From IMG/VR virus record IMGVR_UViG_3300037045_000191, positions 1-27,578 of that record: 27,578 bases of DNA; one strand, 5' to 3'. The stretch is from a virus. Its lineage: Duplodnaviria; Caudoviricetes. Numbering within the stretch: position 1 is the first letter of the stretch; the number at the start of each line of letters is the position of its first letter. Below, in pieces: positions 4,931-18,487 of the stretch. The notes under the pieces are model-generated. The model was not told where the DNA came from, ran no database searches, and saw only the letters and a program-made list of their open reading frames with translations. The position numbers and the translations under genes are program-made.

Positions 4931-5581
4931 TTAGGTTATATCAAATTCGGCACTCTCAACGCTTATGGCGTTAACGCTCCACTTAACAGTGTCAACGTAA
5001 CCCTCCACAAAATCGACCTTGAAAGCACTTTCGAAAAAGATGTCGTTAATGGACAAATCGTCAAAAATATCGCCTACGGCTTTGTAAACTCCGGGGTTGT
5101 CAAATATGCCGTGAACCTCACGAACCAAGTCGCCCGGGTACTGATGGTCTGCCACATCGACCAAAATGCCTTGCATGCTAATTCTATAGGCCCGGTTTCC
5201 AAAGTTCTCAATCATTTCGTGGCGTGAGCGGTCAATGGGAGTAACCACAACATGTTTATCGCGGGTAAACGAGACCATTGGCGGAGGCGCAAGAAAGCGT
5301 CTTATTGTTGGTCTCTGTGGAACAAAGGGAAGGGCAGGGATACCCGATTCAATCATATCAACCCCCCATGCGTAGGTATCGCCTGTTTCCCTATTTACAA
5401 AGTACATTTCAGCAAAGCGGCTATCTGCAGGTCGATAGGACGGCAACCTGAAAAAGTAAGGCAACAACTTTAGTGCAGCACCAAAAACTTGCGGAGCTAC
5501 GGTTCCGTAGCCAAAAGCGGCCACGTGCCTGTCCATAAGTTCGCGAGCTGAAATAAATGTTTTAGGTTGATTTGTTGCCAT
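4931..5581 (-). CDS. DUF6046-like tail tube initiator/hub-associated protein
   Basis: PMVSFTRDKHVVVTPI...IENFG...YRISMQGIL...QYP pattern; lies before hub gene. Confidence 0.65.
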   Translation of the reverse strand: MATNQPKTFISARELMDRHVAAFGYGTVAPQVFGAALKLLPYFFRLPSYRPADSRFAEMYFVNRETGDTYAWGVDMIESGIPALPFVPQRPTIRRFLAPPPMVSFTRDKHVVVTPIDRSRHEMIENFGNRAYRISMQGILVDVADHQYPGDLVREVHGIFDNPGVYKAVGDIFDDLSINDIFFESAFKVDFVEGYVDTVKWSVNAISVESAEFDIT

Positions 5582-6124
5582 ATCCTATAATTCCTACATC
5601 AGTTAACCACTTTAGCTGTTTCATTTTTTCAAACCATACATCATCGGGGAGTTTTTCCGGGAATGGTATGTGCATGAAGTATGAAAGTAGGGCGTCCCCT
5701 TGACGAACGTAGTTTGAAATCTCTCTCTTTTTGCTGTCCTCGTCATCTACGGTGTCAATTGGCGGGTAGCCCTCTATAAGTTTTTTATGACTGCCTTTTG
5801 AACTGGCAGTATCTCAGCAAGGGCGTTAAACGCAGCCAAGAATTTATCGTCGTTGGCCATAATGTCATCCTTGTGGGTGAGCAAACAGGCTTTCAAAATT
5901 ATCTCTTTGGCTTTGTCGGGCTTTTTGTCCAGCCATTTTTCGAACTCGGACATTTCAACACGTCCCGGCACGCGCATAACCACTTCAAATGGCTCAAAGG
6001 CTTCGTCATCGGACGTAAGCAGCGCAGCTTTAATTTTCTTTTCGCCAAAAGTGGCTTTCCAAGCAGCCAGCATTTCAGCGGTAACACCTGCAGGTAACTG
6101 AATTTCTAAGTTTTTCTTTGTCAT
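5562..6124 (-). CDS. Frameshifted tail assembly chaperone (gpGT-like, about 187 aa)
   Basis: -1 slip at AAAAAAC (5786..5780) opens 72 further codons LIEGYPPIDTVDDED...PEKLPDDVWFEKMKQLKWL...NKST, stop at 5562, filling the apparent gap. Confidence 0.8.
5774..6124 (-). CDS. Tail assembly chaperone (gpG-like)
   Basis: 116 aa directly after tube gene; ends on slippery A AAA AAC. Confidence 0.8.
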   Translation of the reverse strand: MTKKNLEIQLPAGVTAEMLAAWKATFGEKKIKAALLTSDDEAFEPFEVVMRVPGRVEMSEFEKWLDKKPDKAKEIILKACLLTHKDDIMANDDKFLAAFNALAEILPVQKAVIKNL

Positions 6125-7921: not shown

Positions 7922-8248
7922 CTATTGATTTTTAAGTGATTTGCGGTCAATTTCGACAACCTTTTTTGGGTCGTCAGACATGTCGGCCATACACTTCATG
8001 GTGAAGTATTCGCCGCGTGAGTTTTTCCAAATCTTATCGACACCGAATTTGTTCATGATGTCAAGTTCGACTTTCTCCAGTGGCTTAACCTTTGGTTTTT
8101 CACTGGACTTCAATTCCTTGATTTGTTCGGACACCCCCTTGAGCTCTTCCTGCAACGTTGCCTTTTCCTCTTTGGTTTTGGCTAATTTCAGATTCGCAAT
8201 AAGTGCGGTATTTTTTTCTTCAAGTTCTTGTAATGATGCTATGCTCAT
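7922..8248 (-). CDS. Hypothetical protein with N-terminal coiled coil
   Basis: 108 aa, in operon, start overlaps upstream stop. Confidence 0.6.
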   Translation of the reverse strand: MSIASLQELEEKNTALIANLKLAKTKEEKATLQEELKGVSEQIKELKSSEKPKVKPLEKVELDIMNKFGVDKIWKNSRGEYFTMKCMADMSDDPKKVVEIDRKSLKNQ

Positions 8249-8484
8249 TCCATTATTTTTTTGATGTTAAACAGTAGGGCGACAATAACCCCAACAACTG
8301 ATATAGTTCCGGATACCCACACCGACCTCGATTCCACTTTACCAAGCCTCTCTCTAACGTCGTAAAAGTCCGGTTCAAGCTTGTCGAGCTTTTTATTGAC
8401 CGCGTCCATTTGGTCGGACAACCGTATCAAAAGTTCTCTCTGTGTAAGCTTGGTTTTATCCACTATCTGGTCATTGCCGCCCAT
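8245..8484 (-). CDS. Small coiled-coil protein with C-terminal TM helix (XhlA/holin-like)
   Basis: 79 aa; heptad region then VWVSGTISVVGVIVALLF. Confidence 0.6.
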   Translation of the reverse strand: MGGNDQIVDKTKLTQRELLIRLSDQMDAVNKKLDKLEPDFYDVRERLGKVESRSVWVSGTISVVGVIVALLFNIKKIME

Positions 8485-8496
8485 TCAACAGGTGTT

Positions 8497-8952
8497 TTAT
8501 TGTTGCAAACTCAGGTGCGTGGTTTTAAGCGTAGCCCGCACCCCTGTTTTGTTACCCTTTGCCTGTACCTTAATAAACCTGTATGCCGCGGTAGCACTCG
8601 AAGTTATAAGAGCCGTTGTGTCTGCGGTTGTCATTTTCCATACTACGGTTTGGATTGATACATACTTTGTCCCGTCAAGCGACCCCAAAACACTAAACGT
8701 TATGGTACTGTCAGCTGATGCCACTTTATCTGCAGAAACCTGCACCACATAGTTATACTTAAAAGGCTTTTGTACCCAAAATACTTTCGAAGGTATAACG
8801 GTAGTGCCGTTAACAGTGTCGGCAGGTGTTGCCAACGCGGTTCGATACATGTCGGCGCGGTCAAACTTAACATCGTAAGTTTGTGCCATTGAAGTGCCAA
8901 CCATGGAAACCATGGCCAGCACTAAGGTGATTATAATTCGTGTGATACGCAT
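8497..8952 (-). CDS. Signal-peptide-bearing beta-sandwich protein (possible capsid decoration protein)
   Basis: MRITRIIITLVLAMVSMVGTSMA|QTY is a Sec/SPI-like signal with Gln at +1; VLGSLDGTKY and AYRFIKV resemble a jelly-roll fold; directly after capsid gene. Confidence 0.6.
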   Translation of the reverse strand: MRITRIIITLVLAMVSMVGTSMAQTYDVKFDRADMYRTALATPADTVNGTTVIPSKVFWVQKPFKYNYVVQVSADKVASADSTITFSVLGSLDGTKYVSIQTVVWKMTTADTTALITSSATAAYRFIKVQAKGNKTGVRATLKTTHLSLQQ

Positions 8953-8964
8953 ACTATTTTTTGT

Positions 8965-10023
8965 TTAAACGTTTGCACTAACGATGGCTCCGCGCGCCTC
9001 TTCCTTGGTTGGAAGCACAATAAAATTGTGACGGAAAGCCAGCGTATTGCGCTGGTATTGTGGGTCTTTTTTCGCCTCACCAGAATACATTTTTACCCAG
9101 CCAGATGCCTTTGCAACTCTTTCGAGCGAGAAAGCAACAGAAGCCTTATGGTCGGTTGCTGCCGGAACAGCACCAAACGAAAGTTTTACTTTAGTGGCGG
9201 GATTGAAGTAAGGACAACCGCTGTACGCATACACCTCGAACCCGTAAAGGTTGGCAATTTTGCCGGTGGTGTAGTTGTAGTACTGTTCCTTAAAATTCTG
9301 GTCAACCAGCAAAAGGTCGTTCACGTGTTCGTCGGTCAAAACCAAACGCCTTCCAACGTCGGGAATTTCCTGGGCGTCAAACTTGCCTTTAAGGTCAACA
9401 ATGTCCTTTAAGGTTAGCCTTTTTCGTCCGGTACCATCATCGTCCCCGGTGGTGAGGAGTACGGGAGTTAACGCCTTGTTTGAGGCCGGCGCAATGGCAT
9501 GGATAGCCTTTTTCTTTTTCGTCCGGTCAATGGCTTTGGCGTGTTTGCTCTTAACAGTGCCTATTTTATCGTAGGTCAACGCGTAGAGCTCGTCATCAGT
9601 GACCGGAGTTACTTTAGTTTGCAGTTTGTCCAGAGTTATGGGGACGTCATCCTCACCCAGAGTTTGCAAATCTATTGGATATGTAGTATTATTAACCAGG
9701 ACATCCGGCAAAACACCCATGTAAGTGATGTGGATTACCTGCATTTCGTCGCCTACATTGGAGACATAACGCGAAAAATCCTCTATACCGTCCAAAAAGG
9801 TAGCCTCTTCGAGCTTCGACATTTCGGTCTTTACGGCACCTGTCCAAACCTCGCGGTACACGCCAGCCATGGTCAGCCCTGCACCCATTGGGATAAACTG
9901 ACATACCTGAATTATTCCGGCAACGGCATAACCGTTGAACCCGGTGGCCATTTCAATGCCGAATCCGGCAGCTACGCTTATAATAAGCGAAAAAAGAAAC
10001 GAAAGAATGAATTTACTTTTCAT
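8965..10023 (-). CDS. Major capsid protein with hydrophobic N-terminal leader (352 aa)
   Basis: Follows protease/scaffold; IPDVGRRLVL and GKIANLYGFEVY are HK97-fold-type motifs. Start revised to ATG 10023 (A-rich context, 19 nt after the protease stop). Confidence 0.85.
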   Translation of the reverse strand: MKSKFILSFLFSLIISVAAGFGIEMATGFNGYAVAGIIQVCQFIPMGAGLTMAGVYREVWTGAVKTEMSKLEEATFLDGIEDFSRYVSNVGDEMQVIHITYMGVLPDVLVNNTTYPIDLQTLGEDDVPITLDKLQTKVTPVTDDELYALTYDKIGTVKSKHAKAIDRTKKKKAIHAIAPASNKALTPVLLTTGDDDGTGRKRLTLKDIVDLKGKFDAQEIPDVGRRLVLTDEHVNDLLLVDQNFKEQYYNYTTGKIANLYGFEVYAYSGCPYFNPATKVKLSFGAVPAATDHKASVAFSLERVAKASGWVKMYSGEAKKDPQYQRNTLAFRHNFIVLPTKEEARGAIVSANV

Positions 10024-10042
10024 TGTGTGTGTGTTTTTGTGA

Positions 10043-11140
10043 TTACAATTCGGGCTCAACGCCATATTTTGCCTTGTACAAGGCTTTGAATTTTGCCGGG
10101 TCTTTTTTCGGCATAGCCTCCAATTCGGCACTGGCCTCGGTTTGGTATTTTTCCCAATCCCAGTCCTTACGGTCGTTGGTGTTGCCACCTTCGCCACCGT
10201 TGTTAATCTGGGATGTTACTGATTTGTATTCCCGCATGTCTGCGAAAATGGCATTCAGTTCGTCCAAGCCAATTTTGTTGCCACGTGCCACGTACTCGTC
10301 TCGCTTTTCTTTGGCGATTTTTCCAGCGGCAATAGCGGCATCAACAGAGGCTTCAATGCTTTTTTTCTGCGTATCGGCAAGTTTTGCCTCGGCAGACTCG
10401 CGTGCCGTTTTTTCAGCAGCAAGTTTAGCATCAATGGCAGCATATATCTGCTCGTCGGTGCTGGCTTCGGTAACGGTGGTTAAACCATACCGGGCAATAA
10501 GCTCTTTTTTGTTCATGTCCTGTATTTTTGTGATTTGTGCTGCGAAACGCTCATACACGCCTTTTGCGCCCAATGCCACGGCATCAGTCTTGTCAAGGGT
10601 TGTAATGTCTTTAACTTTTGGGGAAAATTTTGCATCTGCCAGACCGGCGGCAATGGCATCATCAGCATCGAACCAATTATCGCCTTTAAGCCATGCCTTT
10701 ACTTCATCCTCGGTTTTCTTAGTGCGCTCAACCAACTTTGCAACAAAGTTTTTCTCCATTTTGCGGAGCAAAGCGGCGTACTTTTCCAAGTCCTCGGAGG
10801 TTCCATCAGCACCACCTTGCGGGGCGTGAATCATAATAAAGGCATTCTCGGCGATGTGAATTCGATTACCGGCTAACATAATTATACTGCCCATACTGGC
10901 GGCAACACCGTCAATATAGACATCAATTTGACCTGCAAAACTGGCCAAAGCGTTGTAAATCATATTCCCGTCGAATACGTATCCGCCGTAAGTGTGCAAG
11001 TGAAAGTCGAGTTGTTTGTAACCGTCGTTGGTTATGTCGGCAATGGCCTGAGTTACGTTTCGGTAATCCAGGTACACGCCACCTACGTAACCGTAAATGG
11101 TCAAAACAGCTTTTCCTTTTTCCTTTTTAAGTAAAAACAT
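10043..11140 (-). CDS. ClpP-like head maturation protease fused to scaffold domain
   Basis: LTIYGYVG, HTYGG, IDGVAASMGS (Ser), IMIHAP (His), NWFDADDAIAAGLAD; helical Ala/Lys/Glu-rich C-terminus. Start revised to ATG 11140. Confidence 0.9.
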   Translation of the reverse strand: MFLLKKEKGKAVLTIYGYVGGVYLDYRNVTQAIADITNDGYKQLDFHLHTYGGYVFDGNMIYNALASFAGQIDVYIDGVAASMGSIIMLAGNRIHIAENAFIMIHAPQGGADGTSEDLEKYAALLRKMEKNFVAKLVERTKKTEDEVKAWLKGDNWFDADDAIAAGLADAKFSPKVKDITTLDKTDAVALGAKGVYERFAAQITKIQDMNKKELIARYGLTTVTEASTDEQIYAAIDAKLAAEKTARESAEAKLADTQKKSIEASVDAAIAAGKIAKEKRDEYVARGNKIGLDELNAIFADMREYKSVTSQINNGGEGGNTNDRKDWDWEKYQTEASAELEAMPKKDPAKFKALYKAKYGVEPEL

Positions 11141-15029: not shown

Positions 15030-16334
15030 GACATATTGCCCGAATTCTATGCCGATACCTGCCCGCATTGTGGCGACAAACACCCAACGGCAGTATCAAC
15101 ACTGCCCGATGGTTTGCCGTCCAAAATAACGCGCGAAATTGCCCGAATTGTCGCCGATGTTTACAACGGAAACGTTGGCAAAGAAAACATAGACTATCGA
15201 TTGTTAAAGTTGGTAGGAAATGCCGTTGAAAGTGCCATGATTGACGGCTTTGGAAAGTCATTTGCAACCGTTGACTGGACAACTCCCGATGGCGAAATGC
15301 TTATGCGCCTTACCCGCGATTGTTGGAACTTTTCAGCAGCCAAAAATTACACCCAACTGCGCGACATGACACTGGCGTTGGTTGACGAAAAGGGCAAAGC
15401 GCGAACATTCAGCGAGTTTAAGGACGCTTGCAAAGTAATTGACGAAAAGCACCTGAATTGGCTTAAAACGGAATACGACCAAGCAATTGGAGCGTCAACC
15501 ATGGCGGCACGCTGGGCAGACTACCAGAAAAATGCCGACATAATGCCCTGGTTAAAGTACAGCACCGTAGGAGACCAAAACGTAAGGGAGGAGCACGCTC
15601 TTTTAGACGGCATTATTAAGAAAATAACCGACGAATTTTGGGACATATATTTCCCCCCAAATGGTTGGAAATGCCGCTGCAGTGCCGACCAAATGTCAAC
15701 ATCCCTATCACGGGAAACCGAAAACGTGCCGTCGGTTACCATTCCGGACATGTTTAGGACGAATTTGGCAAAAACGGGACTTGCTTTCCCGCCAAAACAT
15801 CCTTATTACGATATAATTCCAAAAGAAATCCTCAGAGGTGTACCTTTTAGATTACCCGAAAAGGAGGCTTTTAAAGAACTGTATAGGAACGAGAATACGG
15901 GTGGTTATGTAAGGATGCACATCATGCATGGTTTGAGCGAGTACCAGGAGAATTACACCACCGCTAAGATACTTGCCGACAGAGGTGATAAAATAAAATT
16001 ATTACCAATACTGAAAACCGACGAGGAGCGAAAATTATTTTATGGAAATCAACCATTTATATCAGGGAAAAACCCTGACTGCTTTTTAAATGGGGCGTTG
16101 TACGAGATAAAAAGCATAGAAAACGCCACACGTAAGAAGTTGCAAAAGAAACTTATGGAAGGTCGAGAACAGGCGGCAAACGTAATTATGCATCTTACTA
16201 ATGGGGCAGATGATAATTTAGTGTACAGGGCGATTAATGGTATTTTTAATCAATCAAAACACGTTAATAACGTAATCATAATCAACAATCTTGATTATAA
16301 AATAATGAAAAACCCCAACTACGTGAGCAATTGA
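14994..16334 (+). CDS. MuF (Mu gp30/SPP1 gp7-like) head protein with C-terminal PD-(D/E)XK nuclease (CdiA-CT-like) domain
   Basis: WLKTEYDQA, YSTVGDQNVREEH, FWDIYFPPNGWKCRCS; tip has KNPDCFLNGALYEIKS. Only a TTG (15036) is available near the 5' end; first ATG is at residue 68 of the called ORF. Confidence 0.88.
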   Translation, partial: SVGVSPQGCADPDILPEFYADTCPHCGDKHPTAVSTLPDGLPSKITREIARIVADVYNGNVGKENIDYRLLKLVGNAVESAMIDGFGKSFATVDWTTPDGEMLMRLTRDCWNFSAAKNYTQLRDMTLALVDEKGKARTFSEFKDACKVIDEKHLNWLKTEYDQAIGASTMAARWADYQKNADIMPWLKYSTVGDQNVREEHALLDGIIKKITDEFWDIYFPPNGWKCRCSADQMSTSLSRETENVPSVTIPDMFRTNLAKTGLAFPPKHPYYDIIPKEILRGVPFRLPEKEAFKELYRNENTGGYVRMHIMHGLSEYQENYTTAKILADRGDKIKLLPILKTDEERKLFYGNQPFISGKNPDCFLNGALYEIKSIENATRKKLQKKLMEGREQAANVIMHLTNGADDNLVYRAINGIFNQSKHVNNVIIINNLDYKIMKNPNYVSN

Positions 16335-16408: not shown

Positions 16409-18487
16409 ATGGACGGAAAAAGTAAAATAGAATTGGTTTTGGAGTTAAAAAACCGCATGAAAACAGGCCTTACCAAAGCCAAAGAATCGGTTAACTCCAA
16501 CGTAACGGCCATGAAGGAACGTTTAAGCAACCTAAAAAACCACCACGTGGCAGCATTTAAGGCCATGCGCGACGAGGTTCCTATGTTGGGCAGGGCTTTT
16601 GCTCTTGTGGGAAATCCCTACACCATGATTATTGCAGGAGCAATTGCTTTGGGTGCAACACTCTATACGGCAGGTAAAAAAGCGTCTGAATTTCATGCGG
16701 CTTTTTTGCCCATTAAACAACTTAACCTGGATAAATCGTCCGCAACGTTGCGACAATACCAAAACCAGATTAAGGACGCCGCATATAATGTTGGGGCTGA
16801 CCTGAACAAAGCCACTAGTGCTTTTTACGACCTGCAATCAGGAACCGGTCTTTTTGGTCAGGATGCTGTGGACGTATTTGAGAAAGTTGGCAAGTACAGC
16901 CTCGTAACTGGTGCCGACATTAACGATTCCATGAACTCTACCGTGAAGGCTATGCGGGCATTTGGTTTGTCTGTAAAAGACATTGACAGCCTGCTCATTT
17001 CCAACGCCAAAACGGTACAAATGGGTATTACCACCTTCGACGAGCTGGCGCGGGTGCAAACTGAATATGCCGGGGCCGCTAAAGGAGCAGGGCAAAATGT
17101 TGACACGGCCAACAAACTCTTTGCGGCGTTTACTTCAATTGCCAAAGATGCCAACATTGCCGCCAACATGACCAAAACGGCATTCCAGGGATTAACCCAA
17201 AAACAAACCATTGACGGCTTGCAATCAATAGGCATAAGCATGTACGACGCAAACGGGAATATGCGCGACATGGCCACAATTCTGAAAGATGTAAGCCAAA
17301 AATTCAAGACCATGTCATCGGCACAAATTGACGGTTTGATAAACAAAATAGGCGGTCCTGAAGGTTTGCGTTCAATGTTTGTAAAACTCAAGACATCGGG
17401 CGACGACTTCTTTAACACACTTAACGGATTCGATAATTCTACATTTAATTTTGAACAGGCCATGGCAAACGCCATGAACGATTTTGCGACACTAAAATCG
17501 GTCTTTTGGAATCGACTGAACATAGTGCTTACTAGGCTCGGAGAAAAAATACTACCCGTTTTGATTTCAGGGTTGAATGCCGTTATCAAAATAATGGACT
17601 TCTTTGAAAAAGGGTTCACGAAGGGCAAACGCGAATTTATCACATACAACCAGGCTCTTGAAACCATAGGAGGAACATACGATAAATTTAAGACGCATCT
17701 TGCTAAAACGCAATCAGAGGCTATTTCGCTGTTCGAAGCGCTGAAAAGAACTAATCCAGGAACAGAAACCCGCCGTGCCTTAATTAACAAAATAAACCAG
17801 GAATACGGCAGCTACCTGCCCAACCTGTTGACAGAAAAAAGTACGCTTTTGGAAATTGCTGCTGCACAAGATGCCGTTACACGTTCTATCAGAAACCAAC
17901 TGGCCATGAAGGCCAAAGAGGAAAAGATAAACGCCATTGTACAAAGCCAAATGCAACGCGAACAGGATTGGCTTAAAAACTTCGTTACCGATTCTACTCC
18001 GTTGAGTTCTTGGATTGCAGGTCTCGAAGAGTTTACCTCGAAACAGGCCCTGCTATTAACTAAAGACGGTATCGTACAGCAAAGGCTTCTTGAGGCCGAA
18101 AACCTCTCTACCATGACTGGTTTTCCTCTAAAAACCATTGTGGAGACATTCCGACAGCTCAATAAATTGCGCGAGGACGACAAACGAGCCATAAAGTCAT
18201 ACAGCGACCTTTACTCCTCTTATTTTGACGAATCGGCGGCGGCAACAGGCGGAGGAGTTCCAACAGGTGGTACTGGTGGTGCTGGTGGCAGTGGTTCGAG
18301 CGATGTAACTTCCATTGCCGGAAGCGCCAAACAAATTAAGCACATTACCATCAACATTGATTCGTTCAACAAGGGTGGTATTAATACGCAAAACACAACG
18401 CTGCAAAACATGAACCCCCAGCAAATCGAAGAGTGGTTTAACAATATGCTTTTGCGTGTCATTCGTAACGTTGAAACAAGTTACTAG
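16409..18487 (+). CDS. Tail tape measure protein
   Basis: 692 aa, helical and Ala-rich; TP901-type core (LQSIGISMYDANGNMRDMATIL); C-terminal HITINID. Confidence 0.9.
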   Translation: MDGKSKIELVLELKNRMKTGLTKAKESVNSNVTAMKERLSNLKNHHVAAFKAMRDEVPMLGRAFALVGNPYTMIIAGAIALGATLYTAGKKASEFHAAFLPIKQLNLDKSSATLRQYQNQIKDAAYNVGADLNKATSAFYDLQSGTGLFGQDAVDVFEKVGKYSLVTGADINDSMNSTVKAMRAFGLSVKDIDSLLISNAKTVQMGITTFDELARVQTEYAGAAKGAGQNVDTANKLFAAFTSIAKDANIAANMTKTAFQGLTQKQTIDGLQSIGISMYDANGNMRDMATILKDVSQKFKTMSSAQIDGLINKIGGPEGLRSMFVKLKTSGDDFFNTLNGFDNSTFNFEQAMANAMNDFATLKSVFWNRLNIVLTRLGEKILPVLISGLNAVIKIMDFFEKGFTKGKREFITYNQALETIGGTYDKFKTHLAKTQSEAISLFEALKRTNPGTETRRALINKINQEYGSYLPNLLTEKSTLLEIAAAQDAVTRSIRNQLAMKAKEEKINAIVQSQMQREQDWLKNFVTDSTPLSSWIAGLEEFTSKQALLLTKDGIVQQRLLEAENLSTMTGFPLKTIVETFRQLNKLREDDKRAIKSYSDLYSSYFDESAAATGGGVPTGGTGGAGGSGSSDVTSIAGSAKQIKHITINIDSFNKGGINTQNTTLQNMNPQQIEEWFNNMLLRVIRNVETSY

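Follow-up and report, generated by a model that had tools for sequence, protein, structure and literature searches.

A conserved, optional hydrophobic leader on the HK97-fold capsid protein of Mu-like Bacteroidota phages, a possible inner-membrane anchor

The window (the whole stretch of 27,578 nucleotides analysed, positions 1 to 27,578 of IMG/VR record IMGVR_UViG_3300037045_000191) covers part of the genome of a Mu-like phage with a host in the Bacteroidota, a phylum deduced from relatives in Marinilabiliales and Bacteroidales genomes. Profile matches identified genes for a Mu portal, gp36, MuF and a tape measure on the plus strand, and for a ClpP-scaffold protein, capsid, DUF2586 sheath, tube and baseplate hub on the minus strand. 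The sequencing runs matching the window best were groundwater metagenomes, and the capsid family comprised 2852 proteins from gut, groundwater and other Bacteroidota prophages. The Winogradskyella phage Peternella_1, a cultured Mu-like myovirus of the Winoviridae, was matched by 13 of the 24 window proteins tested. The Winoviridae core genes named in the available text of PMC8776804 are Clp protease, neck, capsid, sheath, protein D and portal/head morphogenesis, and all six kinds matched Peternella_1 (tblastn).

Three other genes of the window had features of their own. The tape measure gene (16409-18487, plus strand) lies in the opposite-strand terminase-portal operon, 3' of MuF, whereas that of Peternella_1 sits after the tail chaperone. 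MuF (15036-16334, plus strand) has a CdiA_C-like domain (PF18451, E 2e-8) fused to its C-terminus and in this resembles MuF polymorphic toxins. A tail-chaperone-like gene (5564-6124, minus strand) carries an in-frame A AAA AAC heptamer at its end (5786-5780), past which the -1 frame is open for about 70 codons; judging by these signals, programmed frameshifting is likely.

The region around the capsid gene contained the following features (the arrow marks the putative cut or junction, here and below):

8245..8484, minus strand: 79-aa protein, hydrophobic towards its C-terminus and judged holin-like only by eye
8497..8883, minus strand: single jelly-roll protein, 128 aa, cement-like or lectin-like (pLDDT 94)
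8884..8952, minus strand: Sec/SPI-type signal peptide, 23 aa, ending GTSMA↓Q (Q1 invariant, 9/9)
8965..9864, minus strand: HK97-fold capsid body from G54 (GVYREVW; phrog_267, E 4e-30)
9868..9870, minus strand: in-frame ATG (M52) in GC-rich surroundings, without conservation across the family
9865..10023, minus strand: capsid leader, residues 1-53, with basic N-terminus, predicted helices 2-27 and 31-41 separated by a turn, and a flexible linker to about residue 60
10024..10042, minus strand: A-rich spacer that separates the protease stop from ATG 10023, from its sequence a likely translation-initiation region
10043..11140, minus strand: ClpP-type head maturation protease fused to scaffold (Ser82, His105, Asp154; conserved internal Met, M209 here)

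The capsid ORF (10023-8965, minus strand; 352 aa) starts with MKSKFILSFLFSLIISVAAGFG, and its leader also contains YAVAGIIQVCQFIP; GLTMA↓GVYREVW is reached at residue 53/54. The basic N-terminus and hydrophobic leader of about 53 aa were thus read as in the preliminary description. Structure comparison matched the capsid body to tailed-phage capsids (best E 4e-12), and PF25209 was found in 18 of 92 capsid homologues, the window capsid itself not being one of them. No Pfam family fell on the leader, and the Atlas gave no usable match to it. Contigs of other runs matched the leader at 99% or more with no differences listed, and one record (X3 record 12, 9849-10300) covered all of it; this agreement shows that the leader of the window is not an assembly artefact.

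An in-frame hydrophobic leader was present at 239 of 255 loci with a capsid match, a set which includes the window and many near-copies from gut, and which was mostly fetched with leader-bearing queries. Eight of the other 16 loci were leaderless (7 distinct), four ran off the contig end and four were truncated matches. Among loci fetched by a profile of the short database forms, 73 of 80 had the leader. The conservation across homologues that had been proposed as a check was therefore found, and the phage family is confirmed to have an HK97-fold capsid with a real, conserved leader. Two leader-bearing capsid loci (L035, L086) lay in bins labelled Bacillota; these are probably mis-binned contigs.

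Translation from ATG 10023 was borne out by start context, by selection on the leader and by the scarcity of start codons at the junction. ATG 10023 is preceded by 21 nt rich in A and ATG 9870 by 21 nt rich in GC, in line with the first description; in the window, both have A at -3. In the family, the A fraction of the 21 nt upstream was 0.53 for leader ATGs, 0.48-0.67 for leaderless starts and 0.17 before the junction, and A at -3 was found at 59 of 83 leader ATGs vs. 12 of 83 junctions. The six codons ahead of the junction contained no ATG in 63 of 84 representatives (loci below 80% core identity), and neither ATG nor GTG nor TTG in 43 of the 84. The dN/dS ratio was 0.35 for the leader and 0.09 for the core (73 disjoint pairs), and 568 of 630 leader replacements retained a hydrophobic or small residue; by these substitution patterns, the leader is under purifying selection, for hydrophobicity rather than sequence. 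The count of reading frames open in frame 0 (195 of 195) was true by construction and was given no evidential weight. That ATG 9870 is the true start, and the leader an untranslated open frame, is barely credible: M52 stands exactly where leaderless relatives begin, has A at -3 here, and starts of this kind are sometimes picked by gene callers, but the 43 representatives without any start codon near the junction, the dN/dS of the leader and the A-rich context of the upstream ATG only all oppose it. As a sole start ATG 9870 is largely refuted by these comparisons; a minor second start there is possible in the window because of its A at -3. One database entry (P0079) has a 301-aa form whose matching contig (L175) carries the full leader; its start appears to be mis-called, and other short database entries may be too.

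The leader has a median length of 55 aa and a basic N-terminus (net charge +1 to +3 in 74 of 75). The median length of the longest stretch without a charge is 46 residues (29 in the window), and the leader interior contains about 0.1% Lys+Arg, about 1% charged residues and 32% Ala + Gly. Two separate 15-residue segments reach a Kyte-Doolittle (KD) value of 1.6 in 70 of 83 leaders. Helix 1 has a median KD of 1.98 and a low moment (0.55); helix 2 is short and marginal in the window (KD 1.55 over 15 residues, two Gln, moment 0.97). AlphaFold placed helices at residues 2-27 and 31-41 of the window leader (pLDDT 70-86 over residues 1-40) and a disordered stretch at 47-60 (pLDDT under 50), in agreement with hydropathy as regards two helices. 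The leader is thus predicted to fit a helical hairpin. It shares with Sec/SPI signals a basic n-region and a hydrophobic h-region, but differs from their usual length of about 18-30 aa with one h-region, and the junction has small -3/-1 residues in only part of the family and never the Gln at +1 (0 of 83) that the Bacteroidota Q-rule places after the signal peptidase site (PMC5837995, available text). With a median of 55 aa, two helices and never a Gln at +1, it is not a classical signal peptide. Neither does it have the soluble, charged, scaffold-like character of HK97 delta or T4 gp23 type propeptides. Capsid export, or a junction cut by signal peptidase, as the preliminary description had envisaged, is not supported, given a leader about three times the length of a signal, the missing +1 Gln and Glu at -1 in 7 of 50 junctions of the non-ClpP group.

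The junction follows the pattern G-x-(L/A/T)-x-(A/S/E)↓(G/T)-V-(Y/L)-x-E-(V/I)-W. A (T/S)MA cleavage motif common to both window proteins had been suggested, but TMA occurred at the junction in only 4 of 34 ClpP-type and 0 of 50 other representatives; since it is rarely kept, one common cleavage signal is unsupported, and the T(S)MA endings of the two proteins are a coincidence of this genome. Small residues at -3/-1 fitted 21 of 34 ClpP-group junctions vs. 6 of 49 in the other group, though -3 alone is a weak criterion, as Leu at -3 was tolerated in 28 of 126 control signals. Leaderless forms start M-(A/S/P)-(G/T/E)-V, so the small -1 residue may belong to the mature protein, and the conserved Ala at -1, which leaderless forms also have, is no mark of a cut site. 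Two further patterns were not sustained. The junction motif seemed to depend on protease class, with Leu at -3 in 8 of 34 ClpP-type junctions vs. 39 of 50 others, but this was confounded with clade; ClpP-type loci outside the clade of the window (L026, L032, L033, L047, L060) share the R at -2 of the other class, and clade may explain the difference between the protease groups. The capsid junction also has a GVY-like counterpart in the linker of the ClpP-scaffold protein, but this resemblance was not conserved.

The ClpP triad is intact in the window and in relatives (conserved in 38-39 of 39). By protease, the leader-bearing loci were divided into 52 ClpP-type, 166 of another class and 21 unassigned; the other class is phrog_11321, head-protease-like, with weak matches to head maturation protease families. 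Removal of the leader by the phage ClpP, as first proposed, was thus only partly upheld: an enzyme with an intact triad does adjoin the capsid gene, but ClpP is not specifically needed, because 166 leader loci carry the other class. Leaderless phages keep the protease as well, so its presence is not specific evidence on the leader. In the ClpP-type relatives of the 10043-11140 gene, the scaffold part comes after an internal Met and an (F/Y)-A-A-L helix that is conserved, an arrangement that suggests a nested scaffold start.

Leaderless relatives begin one to three residues before the point corresponding to G54. The distance from scaffold stop to junction was 25-88 nt in the 7 leaderless loci measured, vs. 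151-350 nt with leader; from these spacings, the leaderless loci are clean deletions, with the protease kept. Starting as they do at the junction by clean deletion, they indicate that the shell does not need the leader. They do not form one clade (AU p 5e-56), and at least 4 changes are forced on the tree (67 rows), both trees being quick trees, the second of which left out the long branches L012 and L013. With at least 4 losses, the leader is dispensable. Wider phrog_267 members were leaderless in 6 of 7 places (401-genome sample; two of the seven already in the locus set), as were P. gingivalis Mu-like phrog_267 capsids in four supplementary rows of PMC10367356, as far as that source was available. 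The simplest reading of the unrooted tree is that the leader was gained near the base of the clade and then lost repeatedly. Pairs with and without leader are formed by L186 and L201 and by L046 and L040. At two loci (L113, L156), the leader-bearing capsid gene is directly followed, by eye, by a tail-tube-like gene, a gene order which places the leader in other virion architectures too. The defective heads of Hankyphage (PMC12135933, available text) were considered as a leader phenotype and discarded; its capsid is leaderless and does not match the window capsid.

The ORF after the capsid gene (8952-8497, minus strand) encodes 151 aa. Its Sec signal ending GTSMA↓Q, already noted in the preliminary description, stood up well: it has n-, h- and c-regions, lies in the range of about 19-23 aa and ends A↓Q, with Q1 invariant in 9 of 9 homologues. 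A profile search gave 170 representatives of the family; under a crude rule, a signal-like N-terminus was present in 133, and the Q site in 121, of the best 150 of these 170, and the family signals had a median of 19 aa. The protein is, from these sequence features, likely exported by Sec and cut by signal peptidase I. The mature 128 aa gave a confident single jelly-roll model with near-tied structural matches (porphyran CBM, Z 10.8; PGP3, 10.0; BPP-1 cement 3j4u_H, 9.7), and the nearest Atlas clusters were viral. It resembles the BPP-1 cement Bbp16 (3j4u_H; rmsd 3.0, 111 aligned) in being a single jelly roll of similar size, a fold that is not cement-specific, and in gene position, directly 3' of the capsid gene in 9 of 9 close homologues with context; it differs in sequence (14% identity), in its tie with carbohydrate-binding modules and PGP3, and in the export signal of its family. 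A cement added at lysis is the preferred role, and a periplasmic or surface lectin-like role is possible.

The jelly-roll gene was present at 12 of 233 loci with enough downstream DNA (10 of 227 with leader and 2 of 6 leaderless, one phage counted twice). Leader and jelly-roll gene are thus distributed separately and are independent traits, and the idea of one coupled system is not supported. A single-sequence search with the jelly-roll protein found only itself, and no homologue was found in named phages, Peternella_1 included; P0157 had one weak, unrelated viral match, and two weak jelly-roll matches (E ~5e-4) were unsupported once the signal columns were removed. Three weak, distant matches (L260-L262; 17 bits without signal), signal-plus-Gln proteins weakly like the jelly-roll family, follow an unrelated leaderless phrog_1623 capsid gene in prophages. 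The 79-aa holin-like protein had no match in Pfam or PHROG. At locus L090 the gene in the holin position, second after capsid, starts with a Sec-like signal ending A-Q.

Several known systems resemble parts of this arrangement. The T4 prohead is anchored by its portal (gp20, with the chaperone gp40), and the T4 capsid propeptide is not a membrane segment. In the present phages, each capsid subunit carries the anchor-like part; no gp40-like chaperone was among the PHROG matches of 21 proteins. Delta domains, as in HK97 and T5, have about 100 or more residues, are charged and replace the scaffold; the present leader is likewise an N-terminal extension on an HK97-fold capsid, beside a maturation protease, but it is about 55 aa long, uncharged and optional, and coexists with a scaffold. 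The likeness to T4 lies in head assembly at the inner membrane and release after a protease cuts N-terminal peptides, T4 proheads being released after gp21 cleavage according to the available text of PMC9958956; according to a 2011 review (PMC3185693, available part), membrane association of proheads had been shown for T4 only. That review also describes the procoat of the filamentous phage f1, similarly a coat precursor that inserts into the inner membrane and has its leader cleaved off, but of unrelated fold; the mature f1 coat is itself a membrane helix, and f1 virions are extruded.

Peternella_1 has the same head module, and its capsid (36% identical) also starts with a hydrophobic leader, which is shorter (about 42 aa) and has one hydrophobic helix; this leader is not mentioned in the available text of PMC8776804. 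The capsids of P. gingivalis Nixviridae have SignalP-positive N-termini, which their authors suppose to be removed by the prohead protease (PMC10367356, Matrishin 2023, available text). As here, these are Bacteroidota prophage capsids with a signal-like start, in phages which also encode Q-rule signal proteins; according to the same text they belong to another family (668 aa, phrog_21862), with one short apolar stretch and then a long charged region. The literature search, in which few subscription papers were covered, found no description of the present leader in this capsid family. It would be a variant of cleaved capsid propeptides, a kind of leader that one paper mentions briefly in another family.

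What the sequences show is a leader that is encoded in frame, is under selection for hydrophobicity, can be dispensed with and adjoins an intact protease-scaffold gene. Our main reading, to which we give about even odds (probability roughly 0.5), is that this leader is an optional inner-membrane anchor which concentrates or holds capsid precursors, and which the scaffold-linked phage protease removes as subunits join. The predicted hairpin would insert into the inner membrane with an N-in/C-in topology, as the basic N-terminus and two helices suggest, leaving the capsid domain in the cytoplasm; the precursors would stay concentrated or held at the membrane until freed by the scaffold-bound protease, a phage head protease that would cut the leader near residue 53 when subunits are added to the shell. 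Since the propeptides of capsid proteins normally come to lie inside the prohead, cleavage would take place during, and not after, shell closure; for the same reason, complete heads tethered through every subunit are unlikely. The jelly-roll protein would be a separate module, exported by Sec and cut by signal peptidase I to expose pyroglutamate-TYDV, and might reach heads as cement only at lysis. A stronger version, in which HK97-fold heads are built on the inner membrane by way of a capsid precursor inserted there, a hairpin-crowded patch serves as the transient lipid scaffold on which the shell nucleates or around which it closes, and periplasm-matured cement decorates the heads at lysis, strikes us as quite unlikely.

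A soluble hydrophobic assembly propeptide, delta-domain-like, which stays out of any membrane and packs with itself or with scaffold in the prohead interior, is possible but doubtful. The near absence of charge over about 46 positions, the basic N-terminus, the presence of a separate scaffold and selection on hydrophobicity rather than sequence all speak against it. Delta domains are moreover coiled-coil, which makes the low-charge leader unlike them. Such a propeptide would solve the problem of inward-facing topology, and it agrees with the Ala + Gly content of the leader, with the weak helix 2 of the window and with the frequency of N-terminal propeptides on HK97-fold capsids (PMC3185693, available part). 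Release of a membrane anchor by a host enzyme (signal peptidase I, cutting either behind helix 1 or at the junction, a rhomboid, or another intramembrane protease) is, in our judgement, unlikely. The occurrence of the same leader with two phage protease classes, the small -3/-1 residues of the ClpP group, an A-x-A↓TG after helix 1 in several close relatives and the single-helix, signal-like leader of Peternella_1 would fit it, but the other group seldom has such residues, Glu stands at -1 in some of its junctions, Gln never follows the junction, and at the helix-1 site of the window position -3 is Glu. A hairpin would also put the junction on the cytoplasmic side, whereas the active sites in question face the periplasm. 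No rhomboid was found among 23 proteins scanned with Pfam (ORFs up to 18490 of the window, a partial genome).

That the leader is retained, or that the shell closes round a membrane bud with hairpins as a transient or lasting internal lipid scaffold, would follow if propeptides face inward and cleavage is late, and the cut site is itself a prediction. It is nevertheless very improbable, given that leaderless sisters build the same shell and that Peternella_1, despite its leader, has myovirus heads of the ordinary kind, 52 nm in size (PMC8776804, available text). Joint export of the capsid and jelly-roll proteins by Sec, as one system, draws on the adjacency of the two genes, on the basic N-terminus and hydrophobic stretch of both products and on their common xMA ending here; we consider it highly improbable, as the traits are uncoupled and the leader (median 55 aa) is far longer than the jelly-roll signals (19 aa). 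Tailed-phage DNA packaging, too, requires heads in the cytoplasm.

At the level of annotation, gene callers cut some of these capsids at an internal Met, and such entries need correction. Pairs with and without leader, together with the cultured, leader-bearing Peternella_1, make the role of the leader testable. The capsid proteins of tailed phages are generally regarded as soluble, cytoplasmic proteins; a membrane-type leader on a large capsid family would point to a second route of membrane-assisted head assembly.
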